Made by a program: the position numbers and the translations under genes
Notes under the pieces: generated by a model
Told to the model about the DNA's origin: nothing
Database searches by the model: none
Seen by the model: only the letters and a program-made list of their open reading frames with translations
In this document: positions 1,021 to 47,811 of the stretch, one piece after another
Numbering within the stretch: the first letter of the stretch is position 1
How the letters are laid out: every line of letters starts with the position of its first letter
NCBI GenBank assembly: GCA_019058445.1
Contig: JAHPZA010000007.1
Span: forward strand, 1-64,000
DNA from: Promethearchaeota archaeon
GTDB taxonomy: Archaea; Asgardarchaeota; Lokiarchaeia; Sigyniarchaeales; SOKP01
DNA: 64,000 nt
Direction of reading: 5' to 3'

Positions 1021-1523
1021 GCGTCATGGCGTCTACTCAAGGAAAGGTTCAGATTACTCATGCTCAGGTATTAAGGGTGTGAAATGTAAAGCATATAAAA
1101 TATGGCATTGTTCGCGATTGTAAATCAAATCTCATATTTTGGGACATTTGATTTTACAATGGGGTATGTTCCTATGAGCATGATTTTCAATGCTTGGCAC
1201 GGTGTTCTCGTTTCCTGTGGCGCCACACTCCTCAGCTTTCCCAAGCAGCGCAGGGTACTCATCTCATGTGACGTACTTCCGCGAGGCCGATGCCATTATT
1301 GGCGTATATCATCCAATGGGATGAGATAATGTTCTCAACCAATAATTTGCGATGGTTAAAAGAATAAAATTTTGAAAAATTGATAATTAAACCATCGACG
1401 AAATATTAGAGTAATTATTGAGTTAAAAATTTTATGGTCTTAATTTATAAACTTTAAAAATGATTTGATAGGGTAATGATTTAAAATATTTAATCTTGTT
1501 ATTAGATTTTATTTTTTATGAAA

Positions 1524-28872: not shown

Positions 28873-29799
28873 TCATGAAAAGATCTCATTTTGTATCTTT
28901 AAGTGGTTGATAAGTTCTTTATAACGATTGCGAATAGTGGCCTCAGTTACACCTGCCGCCAAAGAAATTTCTCTTTGTGTCCTACGTTCTCCTTCCTGCA
29001 TAGCAGCAACATATAAAGCAGCGCCCGCAAGACCCGTAGGCGCTTTTCCTGCAGTGATACGAAATTTTTTCGCTAATTTTAATATTTCTGCTGCCCTATT
29101 TTGGGTACTTCCAGACAGGTTTAATTCTGCGCAAAATCGAGGTATAAAATTTATGGGAGAAGATACTTTGATGCTTATTCTTAGCTCATTTATAATCAAT
29201 CTATAACAGCGAGCAATCTTTTTTTTATCAACTGAAGCAAATTCAATAAAATCATCGAGCGTTTTAGGAATACTATTTATCCGGCAAGCGGCATATATAG
29301 AGGCAATTAGCATTGCTTCAATTGATCTGCCTCTTATAAGATTTTTATTAGCCATTTTTCGATAAATATGTGCTGAAGATTCTTTTATATCCTTAGATAA
29401 ATTTAATTGAGAGGCAAATCTATCTAATTCATTCATCGCATAAGCTAAGTTTCGATCAATAGACTTATTAGTTCTAGTTCTTACGTGCCATTTTCTTAAT
29501 CGATATACTTCGGCTTTCATTTTAGGACTAATAGATTTTCCAAAAGCATCCTTGTTTTTCCAACCTATCATAGTTGACAATCCTTTATCATGTAATGTGA
29601 GAGTTGTAGGGGCTCCGACTCTCACCTTATTATTAGCCTCTTCTGCTGAAAATGCCCTCCATTCGGGACCGGAGTCAATGATCTTTTGAGTTAACACCAA
29701 ACCACAGTCGTTACATATGATTTCGGCTCGTGAATTATCTAAAATTAAATTATTATTACCACATTCCGGACACAAATTTGTTATATCTTCCGACGTAAT
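28873..29799 (-). CDS. tfb: Transcription initiation factor TFB (start ATT at 29799 or TTG at 29775)
   Basis: CPEC...CxxCG zinc ribbon, GPEWRAF B-reader, two cyclin repeats, TQxEI...VTEATIRNRYKEL. Confidence 0.95.
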   Translation of the reverse strand: MTSEDITNLCPECGNNNLILDNSRAEIICNDCGLVLTQKIIDSGPEWRAFSAEEANNKVRVGAPTTLTLHDKGLSTMIGWKNKDAFGKSISPKMKAEVYRLRKWHVRTRTNKSIDRNLAYAMNELDRFASQLNLSKDIKESSAHIYRKMANKNLIRGRSIEAMLIASIYAACRINSIPKTLDDFIEFASVDKKKIARCYRLIINELRISIKVSSPINFIPRFCAELNLSGSTQNRAAEILKLAKKFRITAGKAPTGLAGAALYVAAMQEGERRTQREISLAAGVTEATIRNRYKELINHLKIQNEIFS

Positions 29800-34252: not shown

Positions 34253-34320
34253 AATTAGAGAATTATTATATAAACATATAATATTCCGAGATCGCTGGTT
34301 AATAGTTAAAATCTCTTCAA

Positions 34321-34480
34321 GCAGGGATAACCAAGCCTGGTCAACGGTGCCGGACTCTATTGAGATTTATTCTCATAAGCTGGACTCAAGATCTTTAAAA
34401 ATTAATTTCCGTTGATATACCAACTCTGATGAGATATCCGGTCTCATAGGAGTACGTGGGTTCGAATCCCACTCCCTGCA
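34321..34480 (+). tRNA. tRNA-Leu(CAA) with two introns (32/33: 34356-34385; 37/38: 34391-34435)
   Basis: Long variable arm; BHB central helices CCGG/CTGG and CTCA/TGAG. Confidence 0.9.
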
Positions 34481-34486
34481 TCTAAT

Positions 34487-34604
34487 GCGGGAATTGCCAA
34501 GTCTGGTTAATGGTGTTTTCGAGCTTTTTCGAAAGCCGACTTGAGGCGCTGGACTTAGAATCCAGTCTTGTAGAAGTTCGGGGGTTCAAATCCCTCTTCC
34601 CGCA
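34487..34604 (+). tRNA. tRNA-Leu(TAG) with D-loop intron (21/22: 34511-34543)
   Basis: Cloverleaf after excision; central helix GGTT/GACT with 3-nt bulges. Confidence 0.92.
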
Positions 34605-34776
34605 TAAAAATATTAAAAATGATGAGGGTAATTATTTTCTTGTTTGAAACTCATAATGGAAAATTTTTAATTTCTTAATTGATTTAAACATCTACCTAGC
34701 AAACTAGTTAATTATGATTTTTTTAAAGGAAAAACCTTAGTTAACTATCATTCTAAAATTTGCTGGTATTTACACA

Positions 34777-34881
34777 GCTCTCGTAGTGTAGCTCGGCCAA
34801 AGTCTCCTTGATTCCAAAGGTGACAGCGAGGCATGCTAGGCTTTCACCCTGGTGACCCGGGTTCAAATCCCGGCGAGAGCA
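34777..34881 (+). tRNA. tRNA-Glu(TTC) with D-loop intron (about 34801-34830)
   Basis: Cloverleaf after excision; BHB imperfect so junction approximate. Confidence 0.9.
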
Positions 34882-34917
34882 TCCAACGCTTTATGCGTTT
34901 ATGCATTGGAAAACCAA

Positions 34918-35084
34918 GCCTCCGTAGCTCAGTTAGGTAGAGCACTGAGTATTAATCATGCTCAGCCCGCCCAAAGCACCCGGCTTTCATAATTGATTAC
35001 CAGTATGACCGGAAGTTAACCGGGCGGTCGCATGTTCGATCCATTAGTGATTCGAATTCCGATTCGCTGGATAAGCCGGGGGCG
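34918..35084 (+). tRNA. tRNA-Asn(GTT) with three introns (22/23: 34941-34974; 33/34: 34986-35014; 63/64: 35045-35074)
   Basis: Excision restores a full cloverleaf with G73; central helices CCGG/CCGG and ATCC/GGAT perfect. Confidence 0.9.
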
Positions 35085-35256
35085 TACTTTATTCCCTATT
35101 GCTTTTTATTTTAAAAATTTGATCTTTCCTGCACGACCATCATTTTTTCTTTATATATTTTCAAAATATTCAACAATAAATTTTCTACTTAAAAATAGCA
35201 TAATAACCATTTCAATCGTAAATTTAGAGATTAATTCGATATTAATAGGTGATTCA

Positions 35257-35595
35257 ATGGAAGGAGGAAAGAAAGGATATATAGTACTCTGGATATTCAT
35301 GGGAATAATTTTATTTATAACTATACTTTATCCCATTTTTGGCATAAATTTAAAATATCAGATTGGAACTGCTATAAGCACAACGCTTATAAAATTAGGA
35401 AGCATTTTGATTATGGTAGGGACTATAATCCTTATTTTAGGCTTTATTATGTTATTTATCTCTGGGACAGGTTCAGGAGCGTTAAAACCAATGTTAATCG
35501 GGTTCTTTTTAATAGTTCTGGGAGTAATACTTATTGATCCGATGGGTACAAGCTATTTCACTCAAGGCAGAGAGGCCCCGAAAGGATATCATTAA
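35257..35595 (+). CDS. Small 3-TM membrane protein
   Basis: ATG after GGTGA SD; the longer ORF from 35032 overlaps the tRNA. Confidence 0.75.
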   Translation: MEGGKKGYIVLWIFMGIILFITILYPIFGINLKYQIGTAISTTLIKLGSILIMVGTIILILGFIMLFISGTGSGALKPMLIGFFLIVLGVILIDPMGTSYFTQGREAPKGYH

Positions 35596-35692
35596 TATTA
35601 ATTAGAATTATGTTAATTCTGCCTTGAATAAAAAATAACATAGTGTTTTTTAGAGATAAAAGTCAAATTCCCACATAAAAAATTCAACAAAT

Positions 35693-35926
35693 TCATACTC
35701 TAAAATATCTTAAACCGGTATATAATCCTGTCATCCACACAAGCATTATACCCGAAACAATAAGTAAAACAGCGTAGCGTTTTGCAAAACGTCCTCCAAT
35801 AATCAACAATACAAATCCAGCAATAAGGCCCAAAAAACCTAATAGTGAAGCAAAAGCAATTAAAAATTGAATTGCATCCGCTACTCTTGAAAAATACCCT
35901 GTGTAAATCATTTTAAATTTCCTCAT
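35693..35926 (-). CDS. Small 2-TM membrane protein (VirB2/CedA1 pilin-sized)
   Basis: Two Gly-rich hydrophobic helices joined by a basic loop. Confidence 0.65.
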   Translation of the reverse strand: MRKFKMIYTGYFSRVADAIQFLIAFASLLGFLGLIAGFVLLIIGGRFAKRYAVLLIVSGIMLVWMTGLYTGLRYFRV

Positions 35927-36030
35927 ATTTTAGGGACGCGAAGTATTGTACTTAAGAAGAAGTTAAGTTGAATATATTTAAAAGAAAAATATTGATCTCT
36001 TTTAAGTGATATTTCAAACTAATCTGCTAT

Positions 36031-36828
36031 CTAGTAATATTCGGATAACTTATTATTAACTTTCTCATGAATTTCTCTACAAATATCGGTTTTAATTTCA
36101 TCTGGCACATATTGCATATAAGATTCTACTGTGTGGTTAATAATGGGCTTAATACTGGCCATAAATTTTTCAATTTTGACTTCCTTTGCGAGATATAGTT
36201 TTTCGTAAGTATTTATATAGGACCTATTTAATGTTTTTAGCCAAGTCTGCCCTATAGATTCCAGATTTTTTCTAATTTGAATTGATTTTTTATCATTATA
36301 ATTTTCAAACACCCAATCATATTTTTCAAAAACCTCACTAAAATGATCTAAAATGTAGTCCTGAATTCTTAAACTCAAATCGGTATTCGCATTCAAAAAG
36401 ACGATAATCATGTAATTTTTATCTTGAAAAAATATTTTTATTTTTATGTTAGTACCGCCAATTCCAACATGCCGCAGATTTTCAATTTTTACATTTTCAG
36501 CAAATCCAATCAACGAGCTAAGATACATTGAGATAAAATCTGAAAGATCATCCTGATCTTGATTTAAATATTTTTCAATTGGACCAAATCTATTTCTACT
36601 ATTTCCATCATATTCATATGTTAGTATTGAGATTCCAGCTTTATTAGATAGTATAATACCGATAATTGGGGGGATTTGATTAAAGTTAAATAAAGATAAA
36701 AATGCTCTCCTTGAATTGAGTTCACTTCCAATAAGAAATTTGTCGTAATCATAAGGAATATTAGAACTATTATCAATAACTGGCAAGTTATTTAGAGGTT
36801 TTTCAAACTTATGATCTAATGCTCTCAT
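36031..36828 (-). CDS. Longin/roadblock-like domain protein
   Basis: IIGIILSNKAG.SIL beta-hairpin, helix DFISMYLSSL, three-strand pattern. Confidence 0.6.
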   Translation of the reverse strand: MRALDHKFEKPLNNLPVIDNSSNIPYDYDKFLIGSELNSRRAFLSLFNFNQIPPIIGIILSNKAGISILTYEYDGNSRNRFGPIEKYLNQDQDDLSDFISMYLSSLIGFAENVKIENLRHVGIGGTNIKIKIFFQDKNYMIIVFLNANTDLSLRIQDYILDHFSEVFEKYDWVFENYNDKKSIQIRKNLESIGQTWLKTLNRSYINTYEKLYLAKEVKIEKFMASIKPIINHTVESYMQYVPDEIKTDICREIHEKVNNKLSEYY

Positions 36829-36936
36829 TGTTGATTAATATAAAATACAAAATTCGCTTATAAGAAGAATAGACAGAAAGTTTTGTAATTTGAAAATCCT
36901 ATAATTTTTTCGTGAAATGCGGGTTTCATGAAGATT

Positions 36937-36952
36937 TATATATATCCCGATA
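36937..36952 (-). promoter_or_regulatory. TCG-type BRE/TATA promoter of 36031..36828
   Basis: TATCGGGATATATATA. Confidence 0.5.
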
Positions 36953-37021
36953 TTACCAATTTAAATTATTTTTGTATGAAGAGTCTTTTTTTTTTAAATA
37001 TCTTGGATTTAACAATGATTA

Positions 37022-38557
37022 ATGAGAGCACGTAATAAAACTGTAGTTATGTCAAAGGTTGAAAATTGGATTCAGAAAGGATCAAAATATGTCGAATTAG
37101 GTGATTTCAAAAGTGCTATTGAAATTTTTCAAAAAGGATTAAAAGATGAGCCAGAGAATGAGAAACTTTTACTCAATCTTGGGAATTTATATGATGATAT
37201 AGGGGATTATAATAAAGCAATTGACGTATATAAAAAAATTTTAGGGATGGATGATCAAAATAAAACTGTTTGGTATAATTTAGGAAATTCCTTAAGGAAA
37301 AATAAAGAATTTTACTCTGCTATTAAAGCGTATAAAAGAGTTATTGAAATAGACGTTTACCAATTGAATGCATGGAATAATCTAGGTTGTGTTTATTACG
37401 AGATTGGAGAAAAAGAAAATGCTATTGATATACTCAAAAAAACTTTAAATGTAGATTCAAATTACAAATTAGCCTGGTATAACCTTGCTTGTATATATTC
37501 CCAAATGCGAGAGTATGATAAATCTATTCAAATTTTTAAAAAAGCAATAGAAATTGATCCAGGATACAAAAAGGCATGGGATAAGCTAGAGATTGTTTAT
37601 AAGAGAAAAAATGAATTCACATTTGATTTAAAAAATATAAAAATTCTTAGGGGTGGAGATTGGAAAGTTGAAGGAGATAACAGTATTTTTTATTTTAAAG
37701 TAAAAATAATAAATAACTCACAATATCTTCTTTCTAATATCCAAATAATACTCACTTCAAAACCTAAAGGATTGAAAATAAAACGTGATAGAATTCAAAT
37801 CGAATCACTTAATCCTCATTCATTTATTGCTCCAAGATTTAAATTTAAGGCGAAAGAAAGCTGTGTAGGAGAAATAATAAAGGGAATGACATTATTTATT
37901 GATTATCTTGGAAATAGTCATACAATTGAAATTAAACCATTTAGAATAAAGTATGTATGCAATTTGCTTGTCAAGAAAAAAGTTACCAAAGATGTTTTCT
38001 ATGAAAAAGTATCGAAGATGGATGGCAATAGGATATTATTTGATTGTAAAGGCCAAATTGAAGATATAAATAATATAATTTCAGATATTTTAAAAAAAAA
38101 TAATTTTTATTTATTAAAACAATTACCAGATTATCAAAAAGGAGGTTATAGAAAATTAGAGGGTTTTGCGCAGGGAAAATATGATAATAAAGAGGTAGCA
38201 CTAGCGGTTTATTTAGAACAGAAGTTAAATGAACATACTCAACTAATAATTGATGCAATGAGTGAAGATAAAGCCAAAACAATCGATATTTTAAGAGATA
38301 TAAGCTCGCAATGTAATGAGATAAAGATTAGTACAGAATTAATTAAGGAATACACATCGAAAATAGAGGAAATATTTGAAAGGGTTGACGATCTCGAGTC
38401 TTTTCTGATTAAAAATCTCGGTTCAGATTGGACAAAAGTGAGATATGCTTGGCAAGAATATAAAGAAGGTATAATAGACAAAAAACAATTAATTAAAGAA
38501 TTTATTAAAGTATTAGGCAAAAAATTCATTCTAGCTTTAGTTAAGAAGTTTATCTAG
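37022..38557 (+). CDS. TPR protein with C-terminal beta-sandwich plus alpha/beta platform-like domains
   Basis: About 5 TPRs (W.NLG..Y...A), then a beta-rich region. Confidence 0.8.
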   Translation: MRARNKTVVMSKVENWIQKGSKYVELGDFKSAIEIFQKGLKDEPENEKLLLNLGNLYDDIGDYNKAIDVYKKILGMDDQNKTVWYNLGNSLRKNKEFYSAIKAYKRVIEIDVYQLNAWNNLGCVYYEIGEKENAIDILKKTLNVDSNYKLAWYNLACIYSQMREYDKSIQIFKKAIEIDPGYKKAWDKLEIVYKRKNEFTFDLKNIKILRGGDWKVEGDNSIFYFKVKIINNSQYLLSNIQIILTSKPKGLKIKRDRIQIESLNPHSFIAPRFKFKAKESCVGEIIKGMTLFIDYLGNSHTIEIKPFRIKYVCNLLVKKKVTKDVFYEKVSKMDGNRILFDCKGQIEDINNIISDILKKNNFYLLKQLPDYQKGGYRKLEGFAQGKYDNKEVALAVYLEQKLNEHTQLIIDAMSEDKAKTIDILRDISSQCNEIKISTELIKEYTSKIEEIFERVDDLESFLIKNLGSDWTKVRYAWQEYKEGIIDKKQLIKEFIKVLGKKFILALVKKFI

Positions 38558-38686
38558 ATTTTTTTTTCACTTATATTTTGCCTATTATAGTTTATTTTTA
38601 ATTTAAAGGATAAATCTTCAATCTAATTTTTACTAAACTTAGAACTGAAATTTTTAATGTAGATATTATTCTTTATCTAATACGGA

Positions 38687-38705
38687 TTTTGTCGGAGTTT
38701 TTATA
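38687..38705 (+). promoter_or_regulatory. TCG-type BRE/TATA promoter of the ATPase operon
   Basis: TTTTGTCGGAGTTTTTATA. Confidence 0.55.
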
Positions 38706-38742
38706 TTTAATTCTAAATTATTTTATAAAATTTAGCAGATTA

Positions 38743-41571
38743 ATGATTTTTTTTTCTAAATATCTTATAATTCTCTTAGGTTTTTTAGTATTTTTTCTTC
38801 TCCTAACACCATTCTATTTAAGAATTAAGGAAAAGAGGGAGAAAACAAGAGCTTATGAACTATATTATTTGTTTCTAGGTATTTTGATATACATTTTTTC
38901 TTTTTTAGAAACAGTTATATATCCACTTTCGGATAATTCACCCTTTCTATTAATAATTGAATTAGAAATGGTTTTCATTTTATTTCTTTTCAACATACTG
39001 TATTATTTTAGTCAACAAAACGCTCAAGATGAATGGACTACTATTTTATATCTAAGTATTATCATTTTACTTTCTCACATAGTTATTTGTGGAATTTATT
39101 TATCATTTTTAGTAGGAACTATTATTTCTCTTTTCATTGCATTGTTAAGTTTTACTATCATAATTCCATATAATAAGGACTGGAAATTAAGAGGTAATCT
39201 CATTATTTTTTCCTTATTAATTTATTATTCACTTATAGAAAATATACTCTTTATCTCAATTATTTCATTTTGTATCACTATAACACTTGTTTCCCTTGTA
39301 CACGATGAGATCCGCTTAAGAATTGTAGCTGTATATCCGGGATTGATAATAATTCTTAAGCGTATAATCTTTAGACCTAAAATCCTTATGAATAAATTTA
39401 GCATTATTTCAGATATAGAAAAACCTAAGAATTTAAATACAAATAAAAAAGTTAAGTTTTTCCAAGTAAAAGTTAAAATAATCCAGAGAAAACTTGAACA
39501 AGAACAAGATCCGTTAAATCTATATCAATTGAATGAAAGAAGTTTTTTAATTGATCTTCTCCCAGTAAAAGCCACTTATGTTCTTGAAATTATATCTCAT
39601 AAAAAATTTTCCTTATCATTTATAACAAAACATAGGAATAAAGAAAAAGCTCACGAACAAGGTTTAACGATATTAACTAAATTAAAAAGTCTTTATGAGG
39701 GAATTGATGGGGAAATAAGCGTTATTAAAATCTCTAGCAAGGAAATCTACAAAAAGGATCGATATTGGGAAATTAAAATCCCCAAACCACCATTCATAGA
39801 GAAAATGACGTTTATTAGGGATATTATAAATCTTTTTGATTTAAATGAAGAAAAAATAGAGATTTATATCATGTGGAAGCGAGTCTCATCATTAAACCAA
39901 TTTAGAATAAAAAAAATACGAGAGGATGTAAGAAATATAAAATTTAATGATGCAGATGAGAAGGAGAATTTCTTAGAAATGTGGCAAGGAGATCTTTATA
40001 AATTGAGAATTTTTTTCACTTTCAAAGTCTTTGAAAAAGATGTCAGATTAAGAAATCAAAAAATCCGAGAAATTGAAGCCATGCTAAAGACTCTCGCTAT
40101 GTCAAGTAGAAATGAGACTAAGATAGCTAAAATTAAAAAAGCTTCACCTTTTGCAAATGCAAACATCATAAGTAATAGATTATATGGAGGTCGCTATATA
40201 ACATCTAAAAGCTTGGACTTTGATGTTCTTCATGGAATTCCTTTACCTCGATCTTACGCATTGGAAGATGAGAATATTATTAATTTGGATGTAGAAGACC
40301 ATGATTTAAATTATATTTTAATTGGAAATTATATTAGAAATGGACGGGTTTCAGAAAAAAAGATTCCAATTCATAAAAATATATTTAGTCAATCAGTTTT
40401 AATAGGTGGGCAACCGGGTTCAGGAAAGACTTACCTTTTGAGCCAAATTACAAAAGAATTTTATACCAAATGTCCAGATATTGGGATAATGATTATTAAT
40501 TTAGGAAAAGGGAATCAAGAATTACTTTACAAATTTGATAAAATTTATAAATATGGGAAATCAAATTTAAGAGTTCCTTATTTTATCAGGGGAAAATTTC
40601 CAAGAAGGAGTTTACAAGAAACTGCTAAGTATTTAGTTGCTGCGGTTGGGTTAAAAAACATTGTTGAGATAAATATGTTTAATGTAATGCAATTATTTGA
40701 ACAAAAAAGGGGACAGCCCAAAACTGCTAAAGTACTTTTTAATAATTTATTAAAATACTTTGAATTTCGACCATATCATTCCAAATTTCAAACAAATATC
40801 ATAAGAGCGATAGAAAATCGAGTTCTGAGTATGTTATCAGATATGAGACTAGAAAAAACATTAGAATTATATAATAATCCCTATAAAATGCCATCATGGT
40901 TTGAGGAATGGCGAAAGGGTAAAAAAGTATATATTGATTTATCTAGTTGCACAATCTATGAAAAAAGACTATTATGTAATGCAATTTTTCAAATTGTTCG
41001 ATCTTGTGTACCAGATAAGGAGGAAGGTAATCTAAAAAACATCATTCTTCTAGATGAAGCACATCAAATCTTAGAAAAGCCTTCTTTACCTGCTGATCCT
41101 GACGATGATGATTATATTAGCAGACAATCGTTAAAGGATATTTTTAATGAATTATTAAGGGAATTTCGTTCTAAGGGCGTTTCATTTATAATATCAGACC
41201 AAACACCATATACTTTATTCGATTGTGCGACAATATTGCCCAGTTTAAAATTTCTTTTCAGATTAGGACATTTATCGGCGTCTATTATGGGTTCAAATGA
41301 AAAAGAAGAAGCTCTTTTACCAGAACAAGAAAATAGACATTTTATCGTAGTAAACGGTGTAACTGGCGAAAAATATAGAGGAAAAACTCTTGATTTGCCC
41401 ATTCCAACAAGATTATATAATAAAAGGAAGCAATTTGAAAGGGAATATGAAAATACAAACAAATTTTGTCAATTTTGTCATCAGATCATAGATATTGATG
41501 CTGTTTTCTGTCATAGATGTGGGAGCAAATTAATTTATGATACCTTTATAAATTCAAATTCAAAATTATAG
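38743..41571 (+). CDS. Polytopic membrane-anchored HerA/FtsK/VirB4-superfamily ATPase with C-terminal zinc ribbon
   Basis: About 6-7 N-terminal TMs, GQPGSGKT, ILLDEAH, REFRSKG, SDQ, CxxC-CxxC; ATG 38743 preferred because the TTG at 38689 lies within the promoter. Confidence 0.85.
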   Translation: MIFFSKYLIILLGFLVFFLLLTPFYLRIKEKREKTRAYELYYLFLGILIYIFSFLETVIYPLSDNSPFLLIIELEMVFILFLFNILYYFSQQNAQDEWTTILYLSIIILLSHIVICGIYLSFLVGTIISLFIALLSFTIIIPYNKDWKLRGNLIIFSLLIYYSLIENILFISIISFCITITLVSLVHDEIRLRIVAVYPGLIIILKRIIFRPKILMNKFSIISDIEKPKNLNTNKKVKFFQVKVKIIQRKLEQEQDPLNLYQLNERSFLIDLLPVKATYVLEIISHKKFSLSFITKHRNKEKAHEQGLTILTKLKSLYEGIDGEISVIKISSKEIYKKDRYWEIKIPKPPFIEKMTFIRDIINLFDLNEEKIEIYIMWKRVSSLNQFRIKKIREDVRNIKFNDADEKENFLEMWQGDLYKLRIFFTFKVFEKDVRLRNQKIREIEAMLKTLAMSSRNETKIAKIKKASPFANANIISNRLYGGRYITSKSLDFDVLHGIPLPRSYALEDENIINLDVEDHDLNYILIGNYIRNGRVSEKKIPIHKNIFSQSVLIGGQPGSGKTYLLSQITKEFYTKCPDIGIMIINLGKGNQELLYKFDKIYKYGKSNLRVPYFIRGKFPRRSLQETAKYLVAAVGLKNIVEINMFNVMQLFEQKRGQPKTAKVLFNNLLKYFEFRPYHSKFQTNIIRAIENRVLSMLSDMRLEKTLELYNNPYKMPSWFEEWRKGKKVYIDLSSCTIYEKRLLCNAIFQIVRSCVPDKEEGNLKNIILLDEAHQILEKPSLPADPDDDDYISRQSLKDIFNELLREFRSKGVSFIISDQTPYTLFDCATILPSLKFLFRLGHLSASIMGSNEKEEALLPEQENRHFIVVNGVTGEKYRGKTLDLPIPTRLYNKRKQFEREYENTNKFCQFCHQIIDIDAVFCHRCGSKLIYDTFINSNSKL

Positions 41572-41584
41572 TAGGTAATATATT

Positions 41585-42271
41585 ATGAGTGAAATAAATA
41601 GTGATGAATATGAGGAATACGAGGAATATGAAGGAGAGCAAGATGAATCAGAAGAAAATGAACAAAATAAAGAACTTCAAGTGGATTATGGATATGATCA
41701 AGAAAAAGAACAAGAAGATAAACTTAAAGTAGATTATGGATACGATCAAGAAAAAGAACAAGAAGATAAGCTCCAAGTAGATTATGGATGCGATCAACAA
41801 GAAGAACAAAAAAAAAAAGATCATATTGATAAAAAAAATAATGAAATAAGATCAGAAGAAGATAAATTCAAATCAGAAAAAGGAGCTTTATTTGGAGGAG
41901 AAAAATCGAAGGAGAATTTATACAAGACTAATAATAATATTACAGAAAAGGATAAAATTAAGGATTTAGAAGAAAAAAAAAATGAGTCAGAAAACAAAAT
42001 AAAAAACCAGAAAAAACAAAGTTCTAAAGATAAAAGGGGTAAAAGAGGTAAAAGAGGCAGAAGAGGCAAGCGTGGACGTCGAGGGAAGAGTGGTAAGTCT
42101 AAAGGAGGTATGTTAGATTTTAGAACATTAAAAAAAGAGAAAAAGGAAGAGAAGAAAAAACGAGGAGTATTTAAGAAAACAGAGGAAGAAATAAAAGAAG
42201 AAATTAGAAAAGAAATATATAAACAACTTCAAGATGAACAAATTAAGAGAAAGGCAGGTATATTAAGATGA
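41585..42271 (+). CDS. Low-complexity bipolar protein (acidic N-terminus, basic C-terminus)
   Basis: SD AGGT; E/D-rich then K/R-rich; stop overlaps the next start (ATGA). Confidence 0.75.
   Translation: MSEINSDEYEEYEEYEGEQDESEENEQNKELQVDYGYDQEKEQEDKLKVDYGYDQEKEQEDKLQVDYGCDQQEEQKKKDHIDKKNNEIRSEEDKFKSEKGALFGGEKSKENLYKTNNNITEKDKIKDLEEKKNESENKIKNQKKQSSKDKRGKRGKRGRRGKRGRRGKSGKSKGGMLDFRTLKKEKKEEKKKRGVFKKTEEEIKEEIRKEIYKQLQDEQIKRKAGILR
41670..41810 (+). repeat. Three tandem 48-bp (16-aa) coding repeats
   Basis: LQVDYGYDQEKEQEDK-like unit x3. Confidence 0.85.
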
Positions 42272-43173
42272 AAAGAGGTCAATCTGTTTCAGAGGGATTA
42301 AAGCAATACAAAAAAACGATGTCAGAAAAATTTAGTGATTGGAAAGAAGATTCTTATGGGCCTTGGAAAGAAGAGACCTATAAGCCATGGAAAAAAGAAT
42401 TTTCTAAGAATGTGAAACGATTTAATAAACAATTCAAAAAGATGCTTGTCCGTTGGAAGAGGAATATGTTAGAAAAATATAAGCAATGGCGTAAGAATAA
42501 GGTAAAAAGAGAAGCAGGGTTGCAGATAAAAATAAAAAACATAGAAAAGGTGGAAATAGGGAATAAAAAGATCAATTACCATAATCATCTCAATTATTTC
42601 CCTTCAAATGAGGGGCCTACAGAATTTGAGTATCAGAATATTCGAGAGAGAAATACGTTTCCTGTAAGAAATCAATATCCGGAAATTGAAGATCGATATT
42701 ATTATGAGAAAACTGCATACAATTTGGATGAAGATATTAGATCACAGAAATATTTAGGATATGATCGAGGAAAGGGAATTCAAAAAAATGTTGATTTTAA
42801 TAGTTTATTTCGGGATTTTGCCCTAATTCAGGATTTACTGAGAACGAAATCACATCAAGAAATTTTTATTAAATGTCGTTATTTAATTGAGTCTTTTCTC
42901 GAGAAAATTGCGGATATGATTGGAATTCAATATAGAAATGTCCAACATTTCTTAGCAAGCTTAACAAATATGAATCTTAAGAGAAAATTCATATTCTATG
43001 ATGAGATTATTGGGTATACTAAGTTTTTAAATGCAAATCTACATAATGTAGATAGGTTCATGGCTCACTCAATTTATATCCTTACGAAAAGAATTATTAA
43101 CAAATTAGAAAGCATTTTGAGTAGAAAATCGAATAATAATTTTTATTCAGAATATGGAGAAATCTTTCATTAA
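42268..43173 (+). CDS. Hypothetical protein; Trp/Lys-rich N-terminus, possible degenerate HEPN (DUF4145-like) C-terminus
   Basis: CRYLIESFL and LNANLH resemble the R..LE and RNxxxH motifs. Confidence 0.55.
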   Translation: MKRGQSVSEGLKQYKKTMSEKFSDWKEDSYGPWKEETYKPWKKEFSKNVKRFNKQFKKMLVRWKRNMLEKYKQWRKNKVKREAGLQIKIKNIEKVEIGNKKINYHNHLNYFPSNEGPTEFEYQNIRERNTFPVRNQYPEIEDRYYYEKTAYNLDEDIRSQKYLGYDRGKGIQKNVDFNSLFRDFALIQDLLRTKSHQEIFIKCRYLIESFLEKIADMIGIQYRNVQHFLASLTNMNLKRKFIFYDEIIGYTKFLNANLHNVDRFMAHSIYILTKRIINKLESILSRKSNNNFYSEYGEIFH

Positions 43174-43288
43174 TACTCAACTGATTCAATTCAATTTTTT
43201 TTATTACTTATCTTTAAAGCTTGTTGTAGTTTAAATAATTTAAATCCAAATATAGAGTATATTATTTAGCTAAAATTATCAGATTATT

Positions 43289-43624
43289 ATGACTCAAGAA
43301 TATAAAAATTGTCCTCGTTGCAATGGGAAGAAGATTGTAGATTTAGATAACAAAATAAAATGTTTAGATTGTAAGTTAACGTTTGATAAAAAAATCATTA
43401 AGTTAATTGAAGATAAAGCATATATCTTGGCAAATGAGGAAAATGAGGAAATTCTTAAGGAAATATTAGATTCTAAAAATATTAATGAATTTATAGATTT
43501 GTTAAATGAAGTTGATGGAAATTTTTCACACTGCCCCTATTGTTTTGGAAAAATAGAAAAACAGCTTAAAATTTGTCCCTCTTGCGGAATTTTCTTAGAA
43601 GATTATGCAAAAATTAAGAATTAG
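43289..43624 (+). CDS. Double zinc-ribbon protein
   Basis: Four CxxC pairs. Confidence 0.75.
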   Translation: MTQEYKNCPRCNGKKIVDLDNKIKCLDCKLTFDKKIIKLIEDKAYILANEENEEILKEILDSKNINEFIDLLNEVDGNFSHCPYCFGKIEKQLKICPSCGIFLEDYAKIKN

Positions 43625-43685
43625 CAAAATTATGATAATTTATACTAATTTAGAATTTTAAATTTTCTTTCCAATGTAACACTAG

Positions 43686-43704
43686 TTTTGTCGGGATTTT
43701 TATA
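43686..43704 (+). promoter_or_regulatory. TCG-type BRE/TATA promoter, probably leaderless
   Basis: TTTTGTCGGGATTTTTATA ending 21 nt before the ATG at 43726. Confidence 0.6.
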
Positions 43705-43725
43705 GCTATATTTAGAACTAAATCG

Positions 43726-44340
43726 ATGATATCTCAGGAAAATTCAGATTCTTCGGACCCATTTTCCGTTTTTCAATCGGTAAATGACGCCATAGTGGGA
43801 ATATTAGTCCCATTTAACGAGATTTGTATCAATATTTTTCGTTTTGGAAACTGGATTTTATTTCTTATTTTTATATTTTTAGGAGTAAATCTATTAATGA
43901 GTGCCCATGAAAAAGAAACTGAAGAAAGAATTCACGGAAAAAACTTAGAGTATATTCAAAAAAGAGGTCGTATTGGATCTTTTATTTTAATTTTAATAGC
44001 CATTGGTTTCTTATTCAAAGGACTAACGATACTAACGATAATTAGCTTTAGTTCATTTTCAGCTCCGCCCGTTTTTCGATGGCTAAAATGTCAATATCTA
44101 TATAATAATATAAGTACGTTAGAGGACCTGAAAAAGTATGATGTCTTTGAAGTAAGTTTATTTCTATTTATTAGTTTAGTGTCTTTCATTTCAATAATTC
44201 TAATTAGTTTTGGTATTTATCTTCTTCTTTTTAATAAGAGAATTCTTAGAACACATTATAAAGCTTGTTCATTCATTGTTATTGGAGTTATTTTAGCTTG
44301 TATCTTTGGGATTACTCCAGGATTACTCCTAACTTTGTGA
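43726..44340 (+). CDS. 4-TM membrane protein, paralog of 47812..48429
   Basis: Four hydrophobic helices; shared AIG..F...PP.F..L and FG..P motifs. Confidence 0.75.
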   Translation: MISQENSDSSDPFSVFQSVNDAIVGILVPFNEICINIFRFGNWILFLIFIFLGVNLLMSAHEKETEERIHGKNLEYIQKRGRIGSFILILIAIGFLFKGLTILTIISFSSFSAPPVFRWLKCQYLYNNISTLEDLKKYDVFEVSLFLFISLVSFISIILISFGIYLLLFNKRILRTHYKACSFIVIGVILACIFGITPGLLLTL

Positions 44341-44379
44341 GATGTTCATAAAGGAATTATGATTTAAAGCTTAATATAA

Positions 44380-44904
44380 TTATGATTTTAATTGTTTTTC
44401 ATATAAATCTTTGATATATTCATTTAATTCTTTAAATTTCATTTCATTAATCGTCGTTAATTTATCTTCTTCCCAGTTAAAGGTAGTCATACTCTTATCT
44501 GGTTTATGGTTGAATTCTAAATCTTCATACTTAGGTACAAAATCCTCATTAAAATCCTCTTGATCCTTAAATTCATCATCTTCTTCTATAGTGTTATCAA
44601 TTGCCTCATATTCACTAAAAGATAACCTTTTTAGAAAAAAATATACTAAAATACAAAGAAAGATAAACACAAGATTACTTGGAATTACTGTTTCTGAGGT
44701 TAAAATTACATCTGTTTTATTATACAAATTAGGAAGTGAATTTAGGATATAAAAACTCACTGATAACAATATTAACACAGTTATTACGAGCTTTAATCTG
44801 TGAAATGTAGGTTGATAAGCTTGAACTTTATAGAAAACGGCTATTGAAATAGCTAAAGCTGTAGTTAAAATAACAAATGTTAAAAATAATTCGAATGTGA
44901 CCAT
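44380..44904 (-). CDS. 3-TM membrane protein with acidic tail
   Basis: Hydropathy pattern. Confidence 0.7.
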   Translation of the reverse strand: MVTFELFLTFVILTTALAISIAVFYKVQAYQPTFHRLKLVITVLILLSVSFYILNSLPNLYNKTDVILTSETVIPSNLVFIFLCILVYFFLKRLSFSEYEAIDNTIEEDDEFKDQEDFNEDFVPKYEDLEFNHKPDKSMTTFNWEEDKLTTINEMKFKELNEYIKDLYEKQLKS

Positions 44905-44972
44905 CTCTATCTTTTTCTCTTTATGATCCTATAAATCGCCTTATCGATATCAATTAATTATTTAAAATTAAG

Positions 44973-44988
44973 TATAAAAAGTTCGAGA
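44973..44988 (-). promoter_or_regulatory. TCG-type BRE/TATA promoter of 44380..44904
   Basis: TCTCGAACTTTTTATA on the minus strand. Confidence 0.5.
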
Positions 44989-45190
44989 TTTATCCATGGC
45001 AGTTATAAAAAGTAAGTAAATTTACTAAACCAGTTTTTTTTTTAAATTGAGAAATTTATATTTTTATAAGATTAGACTAATTAGATCTTTTTGTCGATAA
45101 TACTTCGATTTTATAATTTTCATTTTATTATTTTACAAATGAGCTAACAGTGAGATTAAATAGATTACATAGTTTTAAGTAATAAGCAAA

Positions 45191-46717
45191 TTAATCTTTA
45201 AAATAATTAAAAATAACTTTAAGAATTAAGTCTTTAAAACATTTTAACACTTTTTCCCCTTCTAACGCGCATACTGGATACACTACTAAAGAACCATCAG
45301 GATATTTAATTTCGTTAGGTAGATTTAAGATTCTTTTAAATATATCTAATGAAATCGCATTATCTAAATCTCTCTTATTTAGTTGCACGTTTATAGGGAC
45401 TCTGAGATGTCCAATGGTATTTATTAGTTCCTGAAAGCTTTGTTTGTTTTGTTCCATCTTGGAAGGATCAGAATCACCTATAAAAATCACTCCGTCAGCG
45501 CCCTCAAGGATCCGCCTGCGAGCTACCGAAAAATTTTCAAGGGCAGGAACAGTTACAATTTGAATAATTACCCCATATTTAGTATCCTCAATTTCAAACT
45601 TTAATAAAATATACTGAGAATCATGCCACAGTGTTGAACCGTTAGTGGTTTCAATGGAATATCCTTTGGTTAAATTCATAGATGAAAATTTTTTTTGTAG
45701 TAACTTAAAATTAGAGGTTTTTCCGGATTTAGAAGGGCCCCAAAAAATTATTCTAAATTGTAGGATTTCATCACAATTTTTTAAGCTTCGATTATCTTTA
45801 GCTTTTTCAATTTCATGATCTATATACTTAGTTAATTCTTTATATCGTTTCCTAATCGTAGCTTCGGTTACTCCAGCTGCTAAAGAAATTTCTTTTTGGG
45901 TTCTTCGTTCTCCCTCCTGTAGCGCAGCAAAATAGAGTGCCCCCCCAGCAAGCCCAGCAGGAGTTTTTCCGGCGGTGAGTCGATACTTTTTTGCTAAATT
46001 TAATATTTTCGTGGCACGATTTTTCGTATTTTCTGAGAGATTAAGATTAGCTGCAAATTTGGGAATATAACTTAAAGGTGAACTTGCATTAAGATTTAGC
46101 TTTAATTCTCTGAAGACAAGTCTATAACACCGGGCTAGTTTTTTTTTCTCAATAGCAGTAAATTCCAAAAAGTCTTCAATAATTTTGGGGACATTATTAA
46201 TTTTGCATGCTGTATAAATTGAAGCTATCACAATGGCCTCAATGGATCGACCTTTAGCAAGATGCATTACTTTTCTATAAATATGAGCTGAAGATTCCTT
46301 TAGATATTTTGGCAAATTCATTTGAGATGAGATTCTGTCTAATTGAGTCATTGCTTCCGCTAAGTTTTTCTCTTTAGGCGTATAAATCATCGATCTTTTA
46401 TTCCAAGTTCTTAGCCTTTTGATTTCTCCAATCATTTTCGGACTAATTTTGTTCCCTTTAGCATCTCGATTCGATTTTCCAATGACCGTGTTTAAACCTT
46501 TATCATATTGCATTAAATTCGTTGGAGCTCCGATTCTAACTTTTTTTGCCTTATCTTCTGAGTTAAAAGCACGCCAATCAACCCCAGAATTAATAAGATG
46601 TTGCTTAATTACCAATCCACATGCGTTACAAATGATTTCGCCGCGAAAAGCATCATTTATTAATATTTCATTCCCACATTCAGGACATATATCTGAAACT
46701 TTTTCTGCGACATTCAT
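45191..46717 (-). CDS. TFB paralog fused to a C-terminal MglA-like small GTPase
   Basis: Complete TFB (aa 1-300), then GPSKSGKT, GADGVIF, NKRD, CAL. Confidence 0.92.
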   Translation of the reverse strand: MNVAEKVSDICPECGNEILINDAFRGEIICNACGLVIKQHLINSGVDWRAFNSEDKAKKVRIGAPTNLMQYDKGLNTVIGKSNRDAKGNKISPKMIGEIKRLRTWNKRSMIYTPKEKNLAEAMTQLDRISSQMNLPKYLKESSAHIYRKVMHLAKGRSIEAIVIASIYTACKINNVPKIIEDFLEFTAIEKKKLARCYRLVFRELKLNLNASSPLSYIPKFAANLNLSENTKNRATKILNLAKKYRLTAGKTPAGLAGGALYFAALQEGERRTQKEISLAAGVTEATIRKRYKELTKYIDHEIEKAKDNRSLKNCDEILQFRIIFWGPSKSGKTSNFKLLQKKFSSMNLTKGYSIETTNGSTLWHDSQYILLKFEIEDTKYGVIIQIVTVPALENFSVARRRILEGADGVIFIGDSDPSKMEQNKQSFQELINTIGHLRVPINVQLNKRDLDNAISLDIFKRILNLPNEIKYPDGSLVVYPVCALEGEKVLKCFKDLILKVIFNYFKD

Positions 46718-46881
46718 TATAACTAACTTTTAACATCATATAAAATAGAAATTATAAAAAATACACGAAAATAGGTTAGACATCCAGGCTTTATTAAATT
46801 CAAGAAAATGTTTGTATAAAAACAAGTCACTAGAAAAAGTTTAAAATTTTTTCTTTAAATAGGCTTAAAATACAGAAGGAT

Positions 46882-47289
46882 ATGATTAAGACTGAAATAA
46901 GATATGAAAAATCGCTTGGAAGACTGAAATGTGATATTTGTGACACTAGATTTCGAGAAAACGCAAGGATTTATAAAGTTAATAATGACATAGGGTATGT
47001 TTGCCAACAATGCAATGATAATTTTTCTAAGGAAGATATATATCTGATTATAGACTTGTTTAAATCTTATGGCGGGTATTTTGGGAAATTCGATGATATA
47101 AAATTATCCTTAGATAATATTTTAACGGAATTTTATGATAGAATTTCGGCTGACGGTAATTTAAAAAACACTTTCGAATATAATAGGAAATTATGTCATA
47201 AAGCACTGCTAAATGGCTATACCCCTAAACAGCTTATTCAAAAAATGAAAGTTCCAAAAAATTATAAACTTAAAAAACGCACCATTTAG
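46882..47289 (+). CDS. Zinc-finger hypothetical protein
   Basis: CDIC...CQQC; divergent from the TFB fusion. Confidence 0.7.
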   Translation: MIKTEIRYEKSLGRLKCDICDTRFRENARIYKVNNDIGYVCQQCNDNFSKEDIYLIIDLFKSYGGYFGKFDDIKLSLDNILTEFYDRISADGNLKNTFEYNRKLCHKALLNGYTPKQLIQKMKVPKNYKLKKRTI

Positions 47290-47462
47290 ATAGATATTGC
47301 TTGCTTAAATCACTAGACCTGTGAACTCATATAAATTAAATTACCAATAAAATTTGGTTTGATACCCCTTTTGACAGAAATATTTGAGTTTAAATAATCA
47401 TCAAAACAAATATTGATAGTTTAAATTAGATTTGAATATTTAAAAGTTCAAATTTAACTTTT

Positions 47463-47727
47463 ATGGTGGGAGAATATCTCAAAATCAATCAATTTTCATG
47501 ACTTAATTGAATCAGAAAAGATCTTACCTCCAATACAATTTAAATTGATTAAAGCCTTAATATTTAAAGGACCATTAACGAGAAAAGAATTATCAATTGA
47601 GCTCAATATTCCTCGGAGTACCATTTACGACAATTTAAAGAAACTTGAAAAGCGGAACGTTGTTATAAAATACATATTAATAGAAGGTAAACAAGGGCGT
47701 CCTCCTGTCTTTTGGCAAATCAAATGA
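47463..47727 (+). CDS. TrmB-like winged-HTH regulator, paralog of 56530..56784, with a disrupted 5' reading frame
   Basis: PIQ..LIKAL..GP.TR.EL...LN.PR.TIYDNL.KL; the ATG at 47463 is out of frame with the body. Confidence 0.7.
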
Positions 47728-47811
47728 ACTCAAAATTAGTTTTAACTAATTATCTTTTATTTTTTTTTAGTTTAAATAATTACTTTACAAATTAAAAATG
47801 AGGTATTTAAT

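Follow-up and report, generated by a model that had tools for sequence, protein, structure and literature searches.

Why a general transcription factor of an Asgard archaeon should end in a small GTPase was the question raised by one gene on contig JAHPZA010000007.1 of a Promethearchaeota archaeon, of which the first 64,000 nucleotides were analyzed (hereafter, the window). In archaea and eukaryotes alike, RNA polymerase is recruited to promoters by TFB/TFIIB, and small Ras-like GTPases are signalling modules whose expansion in Asgard archaea has been linked to eukaryote-like cell organisation. A sequence-only reading of the window had described a full TFB, closely related to a second copy at 28.9 kb, joined in one uninterrupted frame to an MglA-like G domain, and had proposed that guanine-nucleotide state or membrane recruitment directly gates the formation of the pre-initiation complex. 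The coordinates of the gene, its parts, and its surroundings are listed in Table 1.

Table 1. Features of the fusion gene and its surroundings in the window (residue numbers refer to the fusion protein)
Feature	Coordinates	Strand	Basis or remark
TFB-G fusion gene	45191..46717	-	508 codons plus stop; orthologues P0002, P0003, P0004, and G008/P0156
TFIIB-type Zn ribbon, residues 10-51	46565..46690	-	PF08271, 49.8 bits; Cys11, 14, 30, and 33
B-reader/B-linker region, residues 46-115	46373..46582	-	Motifs invariant with housekeeping TFBs
Two cyclin-like TFIIB repeats and C-terminal BRE-recognition helix-turn-helix, residues 116-298	45824..46372	-	PF00382 twice, 123.8 bits
Conserved linker, residues 299-320	45758..45823	-	E-I-x-K-A-K-D-N-R-S-L-K/R-N-C-D/E-E-I
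MglA-family G domain, residues 321-508	45194..45757	-	PDB profile search; AF2 superposition; omega ~0.18
G1 P-loop GPSKSGKT, residues 327-334	45716..45739	-	Alignment of fused proteins
Ser361 at the MglA Arg53 position (intrinsic arginine finger)	45635..45637	-	Alignment to MglA; G2 Thr362 kept
Degenerate G3/switch II start T389-V-P-A392-L393 (MglA T78-V-P-G81-Q82)	45539..45553	-	Alignment
G4 NKRD, residues 447-450, guanine-specificity motif	45368..45379	-	N, K, and D invariant in 13/13 aligned (5 fused and 8 stand-alone)
Housekeeping TFB paralogue	28873..29775	-	The fused TFB half derives from the clade of this paralogue
TATA-like box TTTTTATAA	46752..46760	-	~35-43 nt upstream of the fusion ATG; invariant in 4/4 loci including G008
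Second invariant intergenic block CTATTTAAAGAAAAAATT (- strand letters)	46845..46862		TATA-like for the divergent neighbour gene
135-aa Zn-finger and helical protein, divergent from the fusion	46882..47289	+	Conserved beside the fusion in 4/4 loci with sufficient flank
Small TrmB-like winged-helix protein	47545..47727	+	PF01978, E 2.4e-8; also beside the P0002 fusion
Variable island holding the fusion, ~12.7-13.5 kb	35100..47800		On the left, directly adjoins a tRNA cluster at the cluster's 3' end

The frame is free of stops throughout its 508 codons, as the earlier reading had it. Pfam profiles were matched for the zinc ribbon (Zn_Ribbon_TF, 49.8 bits against a cut-off of 29), the TFIIB repeat (two copies, 123.8 bits), and Arf (37.1 bits against a cut-off of 22.3), and the product is a complete TFB (Zn ribbon, B-reader, two cyclin repeats, and BRE-binding helix-turn-helix) followed by an MglA-family G domain. 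As no methionine occurs between residues 299 and 345, a separate start of the G domain is impossible. The GC composition around the gene is 27-31%, at which stop codons were estimated to make up ~8% of random codons; thus, the estimated chance of an open 200-codon extension is ~1e-8.

The same unbroken architecture was found in four further independent assemblies (ENA ERZ27256772, JGI 3300035125, ENA ERZ27283517, and the NCBI metagenome-assembled genome G008), and these four copies are 53-90% identical to the fusion in the window. An assembly artefact or a stop codon lost in a single genome, which would have undone the original description, has a negligible probability, as the same junction recurs in five assemblies made independently, with different pipelines, from different samples, in diverged lineages under purifying selection, and the linker is highly conserved. 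The fusion is neither an artefact nor a one-off, and it is maintained by selection in a few related lineages. A TFB of the genome G014 that seemed to be read across stops into G-like sequence was rejected as a spurious read-on from an ordinary housekeeping TFB locus.

The sequence features of TFB/TFIIB are present in the fusion (C4 zinc ribbon, B-reader/B-linker motifs, two cyclin-like repeats, and BRE helix-turn-helix), and the expected kinship with the copy at 28.9 kb was borne out by 61% identity over 292 residues. The four zinc-ribbon cysteines are invariant across the fused and housekeeping TFBs. W48-R49-A50, R61/G63/P65, and D72-K73-G74-L75/T77 are invariant between the fusions and 10 housekeeping TFBs, as are the BRE helix-turn-helix residues G282, V283, E285, T287, I288, R289, Y292, and K293 with the housekeeping TFBs. 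Substitutions specific to the fusion clade are densest in the B-reader/B-linker region (11 of 70 positions). Foldseek matched this part to the TFB core of P. woesei (1d3u_B; E 5e-15, 42% identity) and also to 1ais_B. The host genome, of a Lokiarchaeial-type Asgard archaeon, encodes approximately 13 TFB paralogues and three TBPs, a number that fits the specialisation of these factors.

The linker between the two halves is nearly invariant among the four fused proteins aligned (omega 0.03-0.12) and ranks among the best-conserved segments of the fusion. In the AF2 model of the full-length protein, the last TFB helix spans residues 285-310 and is connected to strand beta1 of the G domain by a loop of 6 residues. 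The domains were well folded, but their mutual orientation was undefined (pTM 0.43), and thus, the model carries no structural claim on autoinhibition. A complex prediction pairing the TFB part with the linker and G domain, run without controls, scored 0.00 and has no bearing either way.

When a profile built from the G domain and related sequences was searched against the PDB, MglA was matched with an E-value of 3e-30, compared with 1.8e-9 for the best Arf-like chain, and the AF2 model of the domain superposed on MglA (6izw_A and 6h17) with TM-scores of 0.79-0.80 and an rmsd of ~3 Å; the MglA-like assignment was therefore upheld. An Arf-family identity was rejected: PF00025 passes its cut-off, yet MglA matches 20 orders of magnitude better, and G3 reads T-V-P-A-L rather than the DxxGQ of Arf proteins. 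As the N-terminus of the G domain is taken up by TFB, an Arf-like amphipathic helix is impossible, and a lipidation motif is absent from the C-terminus of the fusion (…NYFKD). Membrane recruitment, one of the two routes proposed earlier, is thus unsupported. The isoelectric points were non-discriminating as a hint of DNA contact (8.8-9.7 for fused and 5.9-9.5 for stand-alone G domains).

The motifs for nucleotide binding are kept. G327, P328, S331, G332, K333, and T334 of the P-loop are invariant in the four aligned fused proteins, and the G008 P-loop (GPPGSGKT) retains GxxxxGKT. The threonine that replaces aspartate in G3 (TxxGQ), described for the MglA family (PMC3000849), is present in 4 of 5 fused proteins and is serine in P0003. 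The catalytic residues are gone. MglB positions Arg53 of MglA to build the catalytic site (PMC13408092; PMC10933270), and the MglA variant Q82L binds GTP, shows no hydrolysis, and does not respond to the GAP MglB (PMC2907295). The Arg53 position holds serine in four fused proteins and lysine in G008, compared with arginine in all eight stand-alone paralogues; the Gln82 position holds L, F, F, N, and I in the five fused proteins, compared with glutamine in 8/8 stand-alone paralogues. The G3 glycine, which senses the gamma-phosphate in Ras-like switches, is alanine in three of the five, including the fusion in the window, which also has leucine at the Gln82 position; P0004 and G008, the most basal fused members, retain the glycine. 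Switch II is near-invariant in the stand-alone proteins (entropy 0.20) but variable in the fusions (0.86), where 12 of 19 consensus positions are altered. At the sequence level, the fused G domains fit the class of pseudoGTPase or constitutively nucleotide-bound domains, with nucleotide-binding motifs kept and catalytic residues lost.

Two stand-alone MglA-like paralogues (G000 C9:394378-395025 and C9:567872-568510) are 53-55% identical to the fused G domain. At 37 loci, the gene upstream of such paralogues always encodes a 183-aa protein with weak similarity to Roadblock (profile E 0.016) and no match in Pfam; it can be considered, as a borderline case, Roadblock-like rather than Roadblock. 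Among the neighbours of the fusion, no gene of this kind and no Roadblock or MglB-type gene was found. A divergent TFB-like paralogue lies head-to-head with an Arf-like GTPase gene and adjoins an MglA-like/Roadblock cluster, an arrangement conserved in 14 of the 14 family loci examined.

The fusion is rare: it was recovered in 2 of the 400 genomes searched within the phylum, and it accounts for a single cluster, at 50% identity, out of 1.84 billion representatives. Among proteins of more than 455 aa, those bearing this TFB part were the members of the fusion clade and an unrelated TFB of 645 aa. Searches for further fused loci yielded none in genome contigs queried with a single protein, only stand-alone G genes among the best 80 matches of a G-domain profile to genome contigs, no relative on viral contigs (IMG/VR), and only ordinary TFBs in a scan of metagenome contigs keyed on Zn-ribbon patterns. 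The narrow, patchy distribution, with an empty syntenic site in the close relative G003, indicates that the function is dispensable. In phylogenetic trees, the five fused proteins formed one clade in both the TFB half (support 94/96) and the G half (99/94), and the inner topology of this clade was identical in the two trees; thus, a single fusion event accounts for both halves. The TFB half nests in the host family's own TFB clade, and the G half nests in its stand-alone G clade. Both halves are under purifying selection. Omega was 0.06-0.09 for the TFB half (0.01-0.08 for housekeeping TFBs) and 0.17-0.18 for the fused G domain (0.07-0.10 for stand-alone G domains), and the approximately twofold faster evolution of the fused G domain than of its stand-alone relatives also fits partial relaxation.

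The divergent 135-aa neighbour belongs to an Asgard-only family consisting entirely of hypothetical proteins. It matched no Pfam family and one PHROG, whose function is unknown (E 7e-5); its AF2 model is confident (pLDDT 87), and the best PDB match (E 0.29) reflected generic zinc-finger similarity only. At the position equivalent to the TrmB-like gene, the locus L001 has an 82-aa helix-turn-helix gene. The surrounding island is missing from the syntenic site of G003, where homology stops at the 3' end of a tRNA, and most of its genes are ORFans. No integrase, capsid, replication, or other mobile-element hallmark was found in the island using Pfam and PHROGs. The GC content is uniform across it, and direct repeats flanking it reach 19 nt at best, a length for which ~0.5 pairs would be expected by chance (an estimate). 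The G008 fusion adjoins a Dam-like methyltransferase, and the remaining contigs with a fusion span only 1.7-5.6 kb.

On balance, the gene probably encodes a specialised, lineage-restricted alternative TFB bearing a permanently nucleotide-bound docking or regulatory G domain rather than a switch that cycles. It would go back to one event in which two duplicated genes were joined, one for the family's housekeeping TFB and the other for a stand-alone GTPase of the MglA type. With all elements for binding RNA polymerase, TBP, and BRE/TATA DNA, the TFB part most likely seeds pre-initiation complexes. The G domain, judged from its residues, would no longer cycle and would stay bound to nucleotide in a GTP-locked-like state, acting as a docking or regulatory module. 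The domain is attached where the BRE-recognition helix ends, on the upstream side of the complex. From there it could bring in a partner or be captured by one, and such contact may confine the TFB to a subset of promoters or conditions, probably belonging to the accessory island that carries the gene. The original proposal that a GTP/GDP cycle directly gates the assembly of the pre-initiation complex is unlikely, since both MglA GTPase residues are replaced in every fused copy, the fusion in the window has alanine for the G3 glycine (as in three of the five copies) and a leucine that corresponds to the GTP-locked Q82L, and the altered switch II differs from copy to copy; the fusion is also unaccompanied by a gene for a Roadblock-like GAP. 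A true switch would require unconventional hydrolysis or a partner acting in trans, and the fused G domain may hydrolyse GTP via a residue supplied in trans or by a different mechanism. The P-loop, G2 threonine, and NKxD retained under purifying selection, the G3 glycine of the most basal members P0004 and G008, and a short, strongly conserved linker suited to conformational coupling all speak for such a switch.

Two further explanations concern the reason for which the gene is kept. The fusion might be cargo of a mobile element that redirects host RNA polymerase to its own genes and spreads horizontally rather than by descent. The island of ~13 kb, largely made up of ORFans and absent from the syntenic site of G003, with homology ending at a tRNA 3' end, the methyltransferase beside the G008 copy, and the short contigs of the other copies are consistent with this, and TFB genes have been reported in Asgard viruses and mobile genetic elements (bioRxiv 10.1101/2021.07.29.453957). 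It is nevertheless quite unlikely, given the lack of any hallmark gene in Pfam or PHROGs, the flat GC, the lack of a convincing flanking repeat or an IMG/VR relative, and the nesting of both halves within the host family's clades. A near-neutral accident, in which an ordinary TFB paralogue drags along a decaying, functionless G domain, would explain the lost catalytic residues, the variable switch II, the doubled omega, and the narrow distribution. This is highly improbable, as omega of the G domain is far below 1 across lineages with near-saturated synonymous sites, the 190-codon frame is intact in 5/5 copies, and the nucleotide-binding motifs and linker are invariant.

The specialised alternative TFB that we favour was compared with known systems. 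In haloarchaea, multiple TFBs serve as alternative initiation factors. The Sulfolobus paralogue TFB2 is likewise an alternative initiation factor (bioRxiv 10.64898/2026.09.06.749720). The fusion resembles these alternative TFBs in having full TFB parts and in being one of many paralogues in a genome with several TBPs, but no TFB described so far has a G domain or another large, enzyme-like C-terminal domain. Some bacterial ECF sigma factors carry fused C-terminal regulatory extensions, and they share with the fusion a promoter-selectivity factor with a regulatory domain in cis; this is an analogy of logic only, between unrelated proteins from different domains of life.

MglA of Myxococcus xanthus and Thermus thermophilus (6h17, 6izw, and 3t12) was the best match of the G domain in sequence and structure. 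The P-loop, G2 threonine, and NKxD are shared, as is the G3 threonine in four of the five fused proteins, and the leucine of the fusion is a natural counterpart of Q82L. Unlike MglA, the G domain of the fusion lacks equivalents of Arg53 and Gln82, has a remodelled switch II, has lost the G3 glycine in three of five copies, lacks an MglB/Roadblock gene beside it, and shares one polypeptide with a transcription factor instead of standing free. The stand-alone Asgard MglA-like proteins are its direct evolutionary source, and their N-terminal tail (…C-D-x-I-I-Q) resembles the fusion linker; however, they keep the arginine, glutamine, G3 glycine, switch II, and an operon with a Roadblock-like gene. 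Rnd proteins (PMC3690454), Rbj with its extra DnaJ domain (PMC6776491), and the pseudoGTPase domains of p190RhoGAP (PMC5593906) are atypical GTP-bound or pseudoGTPase G domains that likewise combine a Ras-like fold and conserved nucleotide motifs with absent catalytic residues. Members of this class act as fixed interaction modules, at times joined to another functional domain, but they are eukaryotic, belong to other subfamilies, and are unconnected with basal transcription, and GTP binding by the fusion is a prediction. Asgard small GTPases with several domains combine the G domain with Roadblock, longin, or unknown domains (PMC10933270); they share with the fusion the lineage and a Ras-superfamily G domain combined with other domains, but a TFB/TFIIB partner is unmentioned in that work.

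A literature search found no published TFB-GTPase fusion, in agreement with the earlier statement that no characterised one was known, and this architecture, selectively maintained, appeared in no paper on searching. The importance of the gene is limited by its being rare and accessory, with target promoters that are only inferred. In a Rosetta-stone reading, MglA/Roadblock-type GTPase modules would communicate directly with the machinery of basal transcription in this Asgard lineage, which we consider possible but rather doubtful; a second, independent association, namely the head-to-head pair of TFB-like and Arf-like GTPase genes, points the same way. If this were true, the promoter access of a TFB would be set by guanine-nucleotide occupancy or by partners in a GTPase network, and the fusion would be the first case of a general transcription factor that contains its own G-protein module. 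The data suggest that promoter selection can be coupled to an interaction module of the G-protein type in at least one Lokiarchaeial lineage, and the fusion ties small-GTPase modules to transcription initiation in a way that can be tested.

The fusion gene is read in one frame of 508 codons, uninterrupted across the junction between its TFB and G parts. Its first 300 residues shared 61% identity with the stand-alone TFB at 28.9 kb, and together with the frame and the Pfam domains (table), this confirmed the proposal of the sequence-only reading that a full TFB related to that copy is joined to a G domain. As methionine is absent between the TFB end and residue 346, the G domain is not separately translatable. 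The host is a Lokiarchaeial-type Asgard archaeon, and its genome (G000; 4.6 Mb, 10 contigs) is 92.6% complete. The genome is rich in basal factors: TFB-family ORFs number about 13, and TBP is encoded by three genes.

A word-indexed search of the G-domain region against 5.8 billion proteins returned three more proteins of 508–512 aa (P0002, P0003, and P0004) in which all three Pfam families recur; they originated from three separate metagenome assemblies and showed G-domain identities of 84, 71, and 60%. A fifth copy (513 aa, 53% identity, stop-free) was retrieved by a whole-genome search of 40 relatives in G008, a MAG of another species of the same genus, and was labeled in NCBI merely as 'TFIIB-type zinc ribbon-containing protein'. 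When the linker and G domain were searched exhaustively with HMMER against 1.84 billion cluster representatives, P0004 was the one fused representative returned; in all other top matches, the G domain was N-terminal or nearly so (start at or before residue 114). Among all proteins longer than 455 aa, the TFB-part search yielded the fusion clade, one unrelated long TFB, and nothing else. For 400 genomes of the phylum, 134 of them from the same family, a junction-spanning query matched across the junction in G000 and G008 only. A third candidate among these genomes, G014, was a spurious match. From these searches, the TFB–G architecture is real and recurrent but restricted to a small clade. No TFB–GTPase fusion was found in the literature searched, in line with the earlier statement that no characterized one was known, and a survey of Asgard small-GTPase architectures named Roadblock, longin, and unknown domains as fusion partners, with TFB not listed (PMC10933270).

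The five fused TFB halves formed one clade (support 94/96), nested with long branches in the housekeeping-TFB clade of the family. The five fused G domains likewise formed one clade (support 99/94), nested in a well-supported Asgard clade of stand-alone proteins of ~215 aa, two of which are present in G000 with 53–55% identity to the fused G domain. As both halves are monophyletic with the same inner topology, (P0004, G008, (P0003, (G000, P0002))), the trees indicate that two host-derived duplicates fused once and then descended together. The fusion linker was similar to the N-terminal tail of the stand-alone G proteins. Omega values (Nei–Gojobori, unsaturated pairs) were 0.06–0.09 for the TFB half, 0.03–0.12 for the 22-residue linker, and 0.17–0.18 for the G domain, compared with same-genus baselines of 0.01–0.08 for the housekeeping TFB and 0.07–0.10 for the stand-alone G gene. 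By this comparison, constraint on each fused half is relaxed about twofold from that on its parent, yet purifying selection clearly acts on both.

The fusions and ten housekeeping TFBs share, without variation, all four cysteines of the zinc ribbon, the motifs of the B-reader and B-linker, and the residues of the C-terminal helix-turn-helix that reads the BRE. Substitutions specific to the fusion clade reached their highest density in the B-reader/linker region, with 11 over 70 positions, and were absent from the ribbon. Judged by sequence, the fused protein counts as a TFB in every membership test. In the AF2 model of the fusion (28-row alignment), which best matched 1d3u_B, the cyclin and G domains were well folded (block pLDDT about 80–90); the pTM was 0.43, and the mutual orientation of the two halves is therefore undefined. 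The last TFB helix, bearing the BRE-recognition residues, was predicted to span residues 285–310, and six residues separate its end from strand beta1 of the G domain. The geometry of the solved TFB–TBP–DNA complexes is established, and because of this helix and the short link, reading the model on that geometry would put the G domain on the BRE side of the initiation complex, at its upstream edge.

The G half is a member of the MglA family, as had been proposed: the profile of fused and stand-alone proteins matched solved MglA at E 3e-30 (vs. 1.8e-9 for the best Arf-like chain), and the AF2 model of the G domain superposed on MglA with a TM of 0.79–0.80. HMMER aligned the two catalytic residues of M. 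xanthus MglA, Arg53 (…T-D-R-T-L-F-F…) and Gln82 (T-V-P-G-Q), to Arg (…E-G-R-T-L-W…) and T-C-T-G-Q of the stand-alone proteins, all eight of which kept both equivalents. Both were replaced in all five fused proteins, Arg53 by Ser (four) or Lys (one) and Gln82 by Leu, Phe, Phe, Asn, and Ile, with Leu in the window's copy. Ala replaced the G3 glycine in three of these proteins, the window's copy among them. Switch II, near-invariant among the stand-alone proteins (mean column entropy 0.20), was variable in the fusions (0.86), with 12 of 19 consensus positions changed, while the P-loop GKT, switch-I Thr, and NKxD were retained. MglA Q82L binds GTP without hydrolysis and is insensitive to its GAP MglB (PMC2907295), which acts by placing Arg53 in the active site (PMC13408092; PMC10933270). 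Because both catalytic residues are replaced, with Leu at the Gln82 position, and given the published behavior of Q82L, the fused domain is predicted to bind nucleotide and to be unable to run the MglA GTPase cycle.

A 183-aa gene lies upstream of the stand-alone G gene in each of the 37 Asgard loci for which the upstream gene was recovered, as in two paralogous operons of G000. The 183-aa gene had no match in the Pfam search, and its profile matched the solved Roadblock/LC7 protein 9jue_D at a borderline E of 0.016; its product looks like an MglB-like partner. Among the neighboring genes of the fusion, none of this kind was found. The fused domain resembles MglA in overall similarity, P-loop, and NKxD, and the G3 Thr of MglA is present in four of the five fused proteins (Ser in P0003), but the domain lacks both catalytic residues and an adjacent Roadblock partner; its most fitting description is an MglA-derived pseudoGTPase-like domain. 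The constitutively GTP-bound atypical G proteins Rnd and Rbj may be its functional analogues.

Four loci had enough flanking sequence, and in each the fusion gene was adjoined by a divergent gene for a zinc-finger/helical protein of ~130 aa (42% identity for the G008 copy). The intergenic region between them contains two blocks that do not vary among the four loci and resemble the TATA boxes of the two genes. This Asgard-only family combines a CxxC…CxxC zinc finger with a four-helix domain and has several copies per genome in this archaeal family; its AF2 model was confident (pLDDT 87, pTM 0.80), with no significant match in the PDB. Just past the G008 copy lies a Dam-type methyltransferase-like gene, in a context unlike that of the window. 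The close relative G003, whose housekeeping TFB is 99% identical (dS 0.69), is collinear with G000 on either side of an island of ~13 kb that includes the fusion and is absent from the syntenic site in G003 (locus L119). The fusion gene therefore belongs to the flexible genome.

Homology between G003 and G000 breaks off at the 3' end of the last of four clustered tRNA-like genes that carry long introns; the cluster itself is also present in G003. Neither default ARAGORN nor Rfam at the gathering threshold called anything in this cluster; with introns allowed, ARAGORN called Trp-cca (63-nt intron), 'Lys-ctt' (45-nt intron), and Val-gac. The fourth gene, with no ARAGORN call, begins GCCTCCGTAGCTCAG and ends CCGGGGGCG, and probably carries two or more introns; a 187-aa ORF overlaps its 3' end.

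Features of the window and of related loci (window positions unless a contig, locus, or residue range is named)
Feature	Location	Strand	Remarks
LSU rRNA gene	1-1032	-	Archaeal; 5' part, truncated by window start
Stand-alone TFB	28873-29775		
tRNA-like cluster	34290-35095	+	Four genes
Fourth tRNA-like gene	about 34.9-35.09 kb		
187-aa ORF	35032-35595		
Island	~35100-47800		Also holds a 960-aa ORFan, several small ORFans, membrane proteins, TrmB-like HTH
TPR protein	37022-38557		Island
Tandem repeats	41652-41843	+	Four 48-nt repeats, 65-100% identity, encoding a repeated acidic/Lys-rich 16-residue unit; in 228-aa ORF 41585-42271
Fusion gene	45191-46717	-	Island
TFIIB zinc ribbon	fusion residues 10-51		Pfam
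Two TFIIB cyclin repeats	fusion, to about residue 297		Pfam
Arf-family G domain	fusion C-terminus		Pfam, above curated cut-off
Zinc-finger neighbor	46882-47289	+	Island; paralogues G000 C4:234447-234800, C9:551029-551358
Methyltransferase-like gene	L005 36-872 (G008:C271)		DNA adenine methyltransferase-like, 278 aa, …DPPY motif
TBP genes	G000 C4:14572-15090, C4:298489-299010, C3:97069-97602		
183-aa gene then MglA-like gene	G000 C9:393809-395025		Operon, L105
183-aa gene then MglA-like gene	G000 C9:567298-569728		Operon, L106; also carries a conserved 401-aa gene of no known family
TFB-like/GTPase neighborhood	G000 C7:78250-83741		L113; window's contig, past window end; Cdc6/Orc1 and autoantigen-p27-type Zn-ribbon genes nearby

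We favor, at slightly better than even confidence, a specialized alternative TFB competent for initiation. The fused protein would be able to nucleate initiation complexes, its G domain would be a permanently nucleotide-bound, hydrolysis-dead module serving docking or regulation at their upstream edge, and its targets would probably be the accessory island's own genes. A true GTP/GDP switch, proposed in the sequence-only reading with nucleotide state gating the pre-initiation complex, is harder to sustain now that both catalytic residues, the G3 glycine, and the switch II consensus are seen to be lost, and we consider it unlikely; the membrane recruitment offered beside it is unsupported.

A mobile-element origin of the island and the fusion gene is possible. 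No integrase or viral gene was recognizable in the island, no convincing flanking repeats were found, its GC was uniform, and no relatives were found on IMG/VR contigs; that the protein itself is a mobile-element factor seems quite improbable. A neutral passenger role is contradicted by the omega values and motif conservation and is very unlikely; the fused G domain is not a decaying passenger. An assembly artifact is scarcely credible, as the frame reads through the junction and the architecture search found the same architecture in separate assemblies, which also disposes of the one-off that had been raised as a concern.

Besides the favored alternative TFB, a second association of TFB-family and small-GTPase genes was found. 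On the same contig but past the end of the window (L113, table), the genes for a divergent TFB-like protein of 341 aa (PF00382, E 1e-7) and for a 229-aa Arf-like GTPase are arranged head-to-head. Next to this pair are genes for an MglA-like protein (203 aa), a 298-aa protein, and a Roadblock/LC7-domain protein (333 aa). The TFB-like/Arf-like pair was kept in 14 of 14 family loci examined, and in a more distant family, the TFB-like gene was ~2 kb from the MglA-like/298-aa pair in four of nine loci. As the genomes compared are kin, this may be plain synteny. As a second gene link between the two families, it keeps alive the tentative and rather doubtful Rosetta stone reading, in which MglA/Roadblock-type small-GTPase modules would talk directly to the basal transcription machinery in this lineage.
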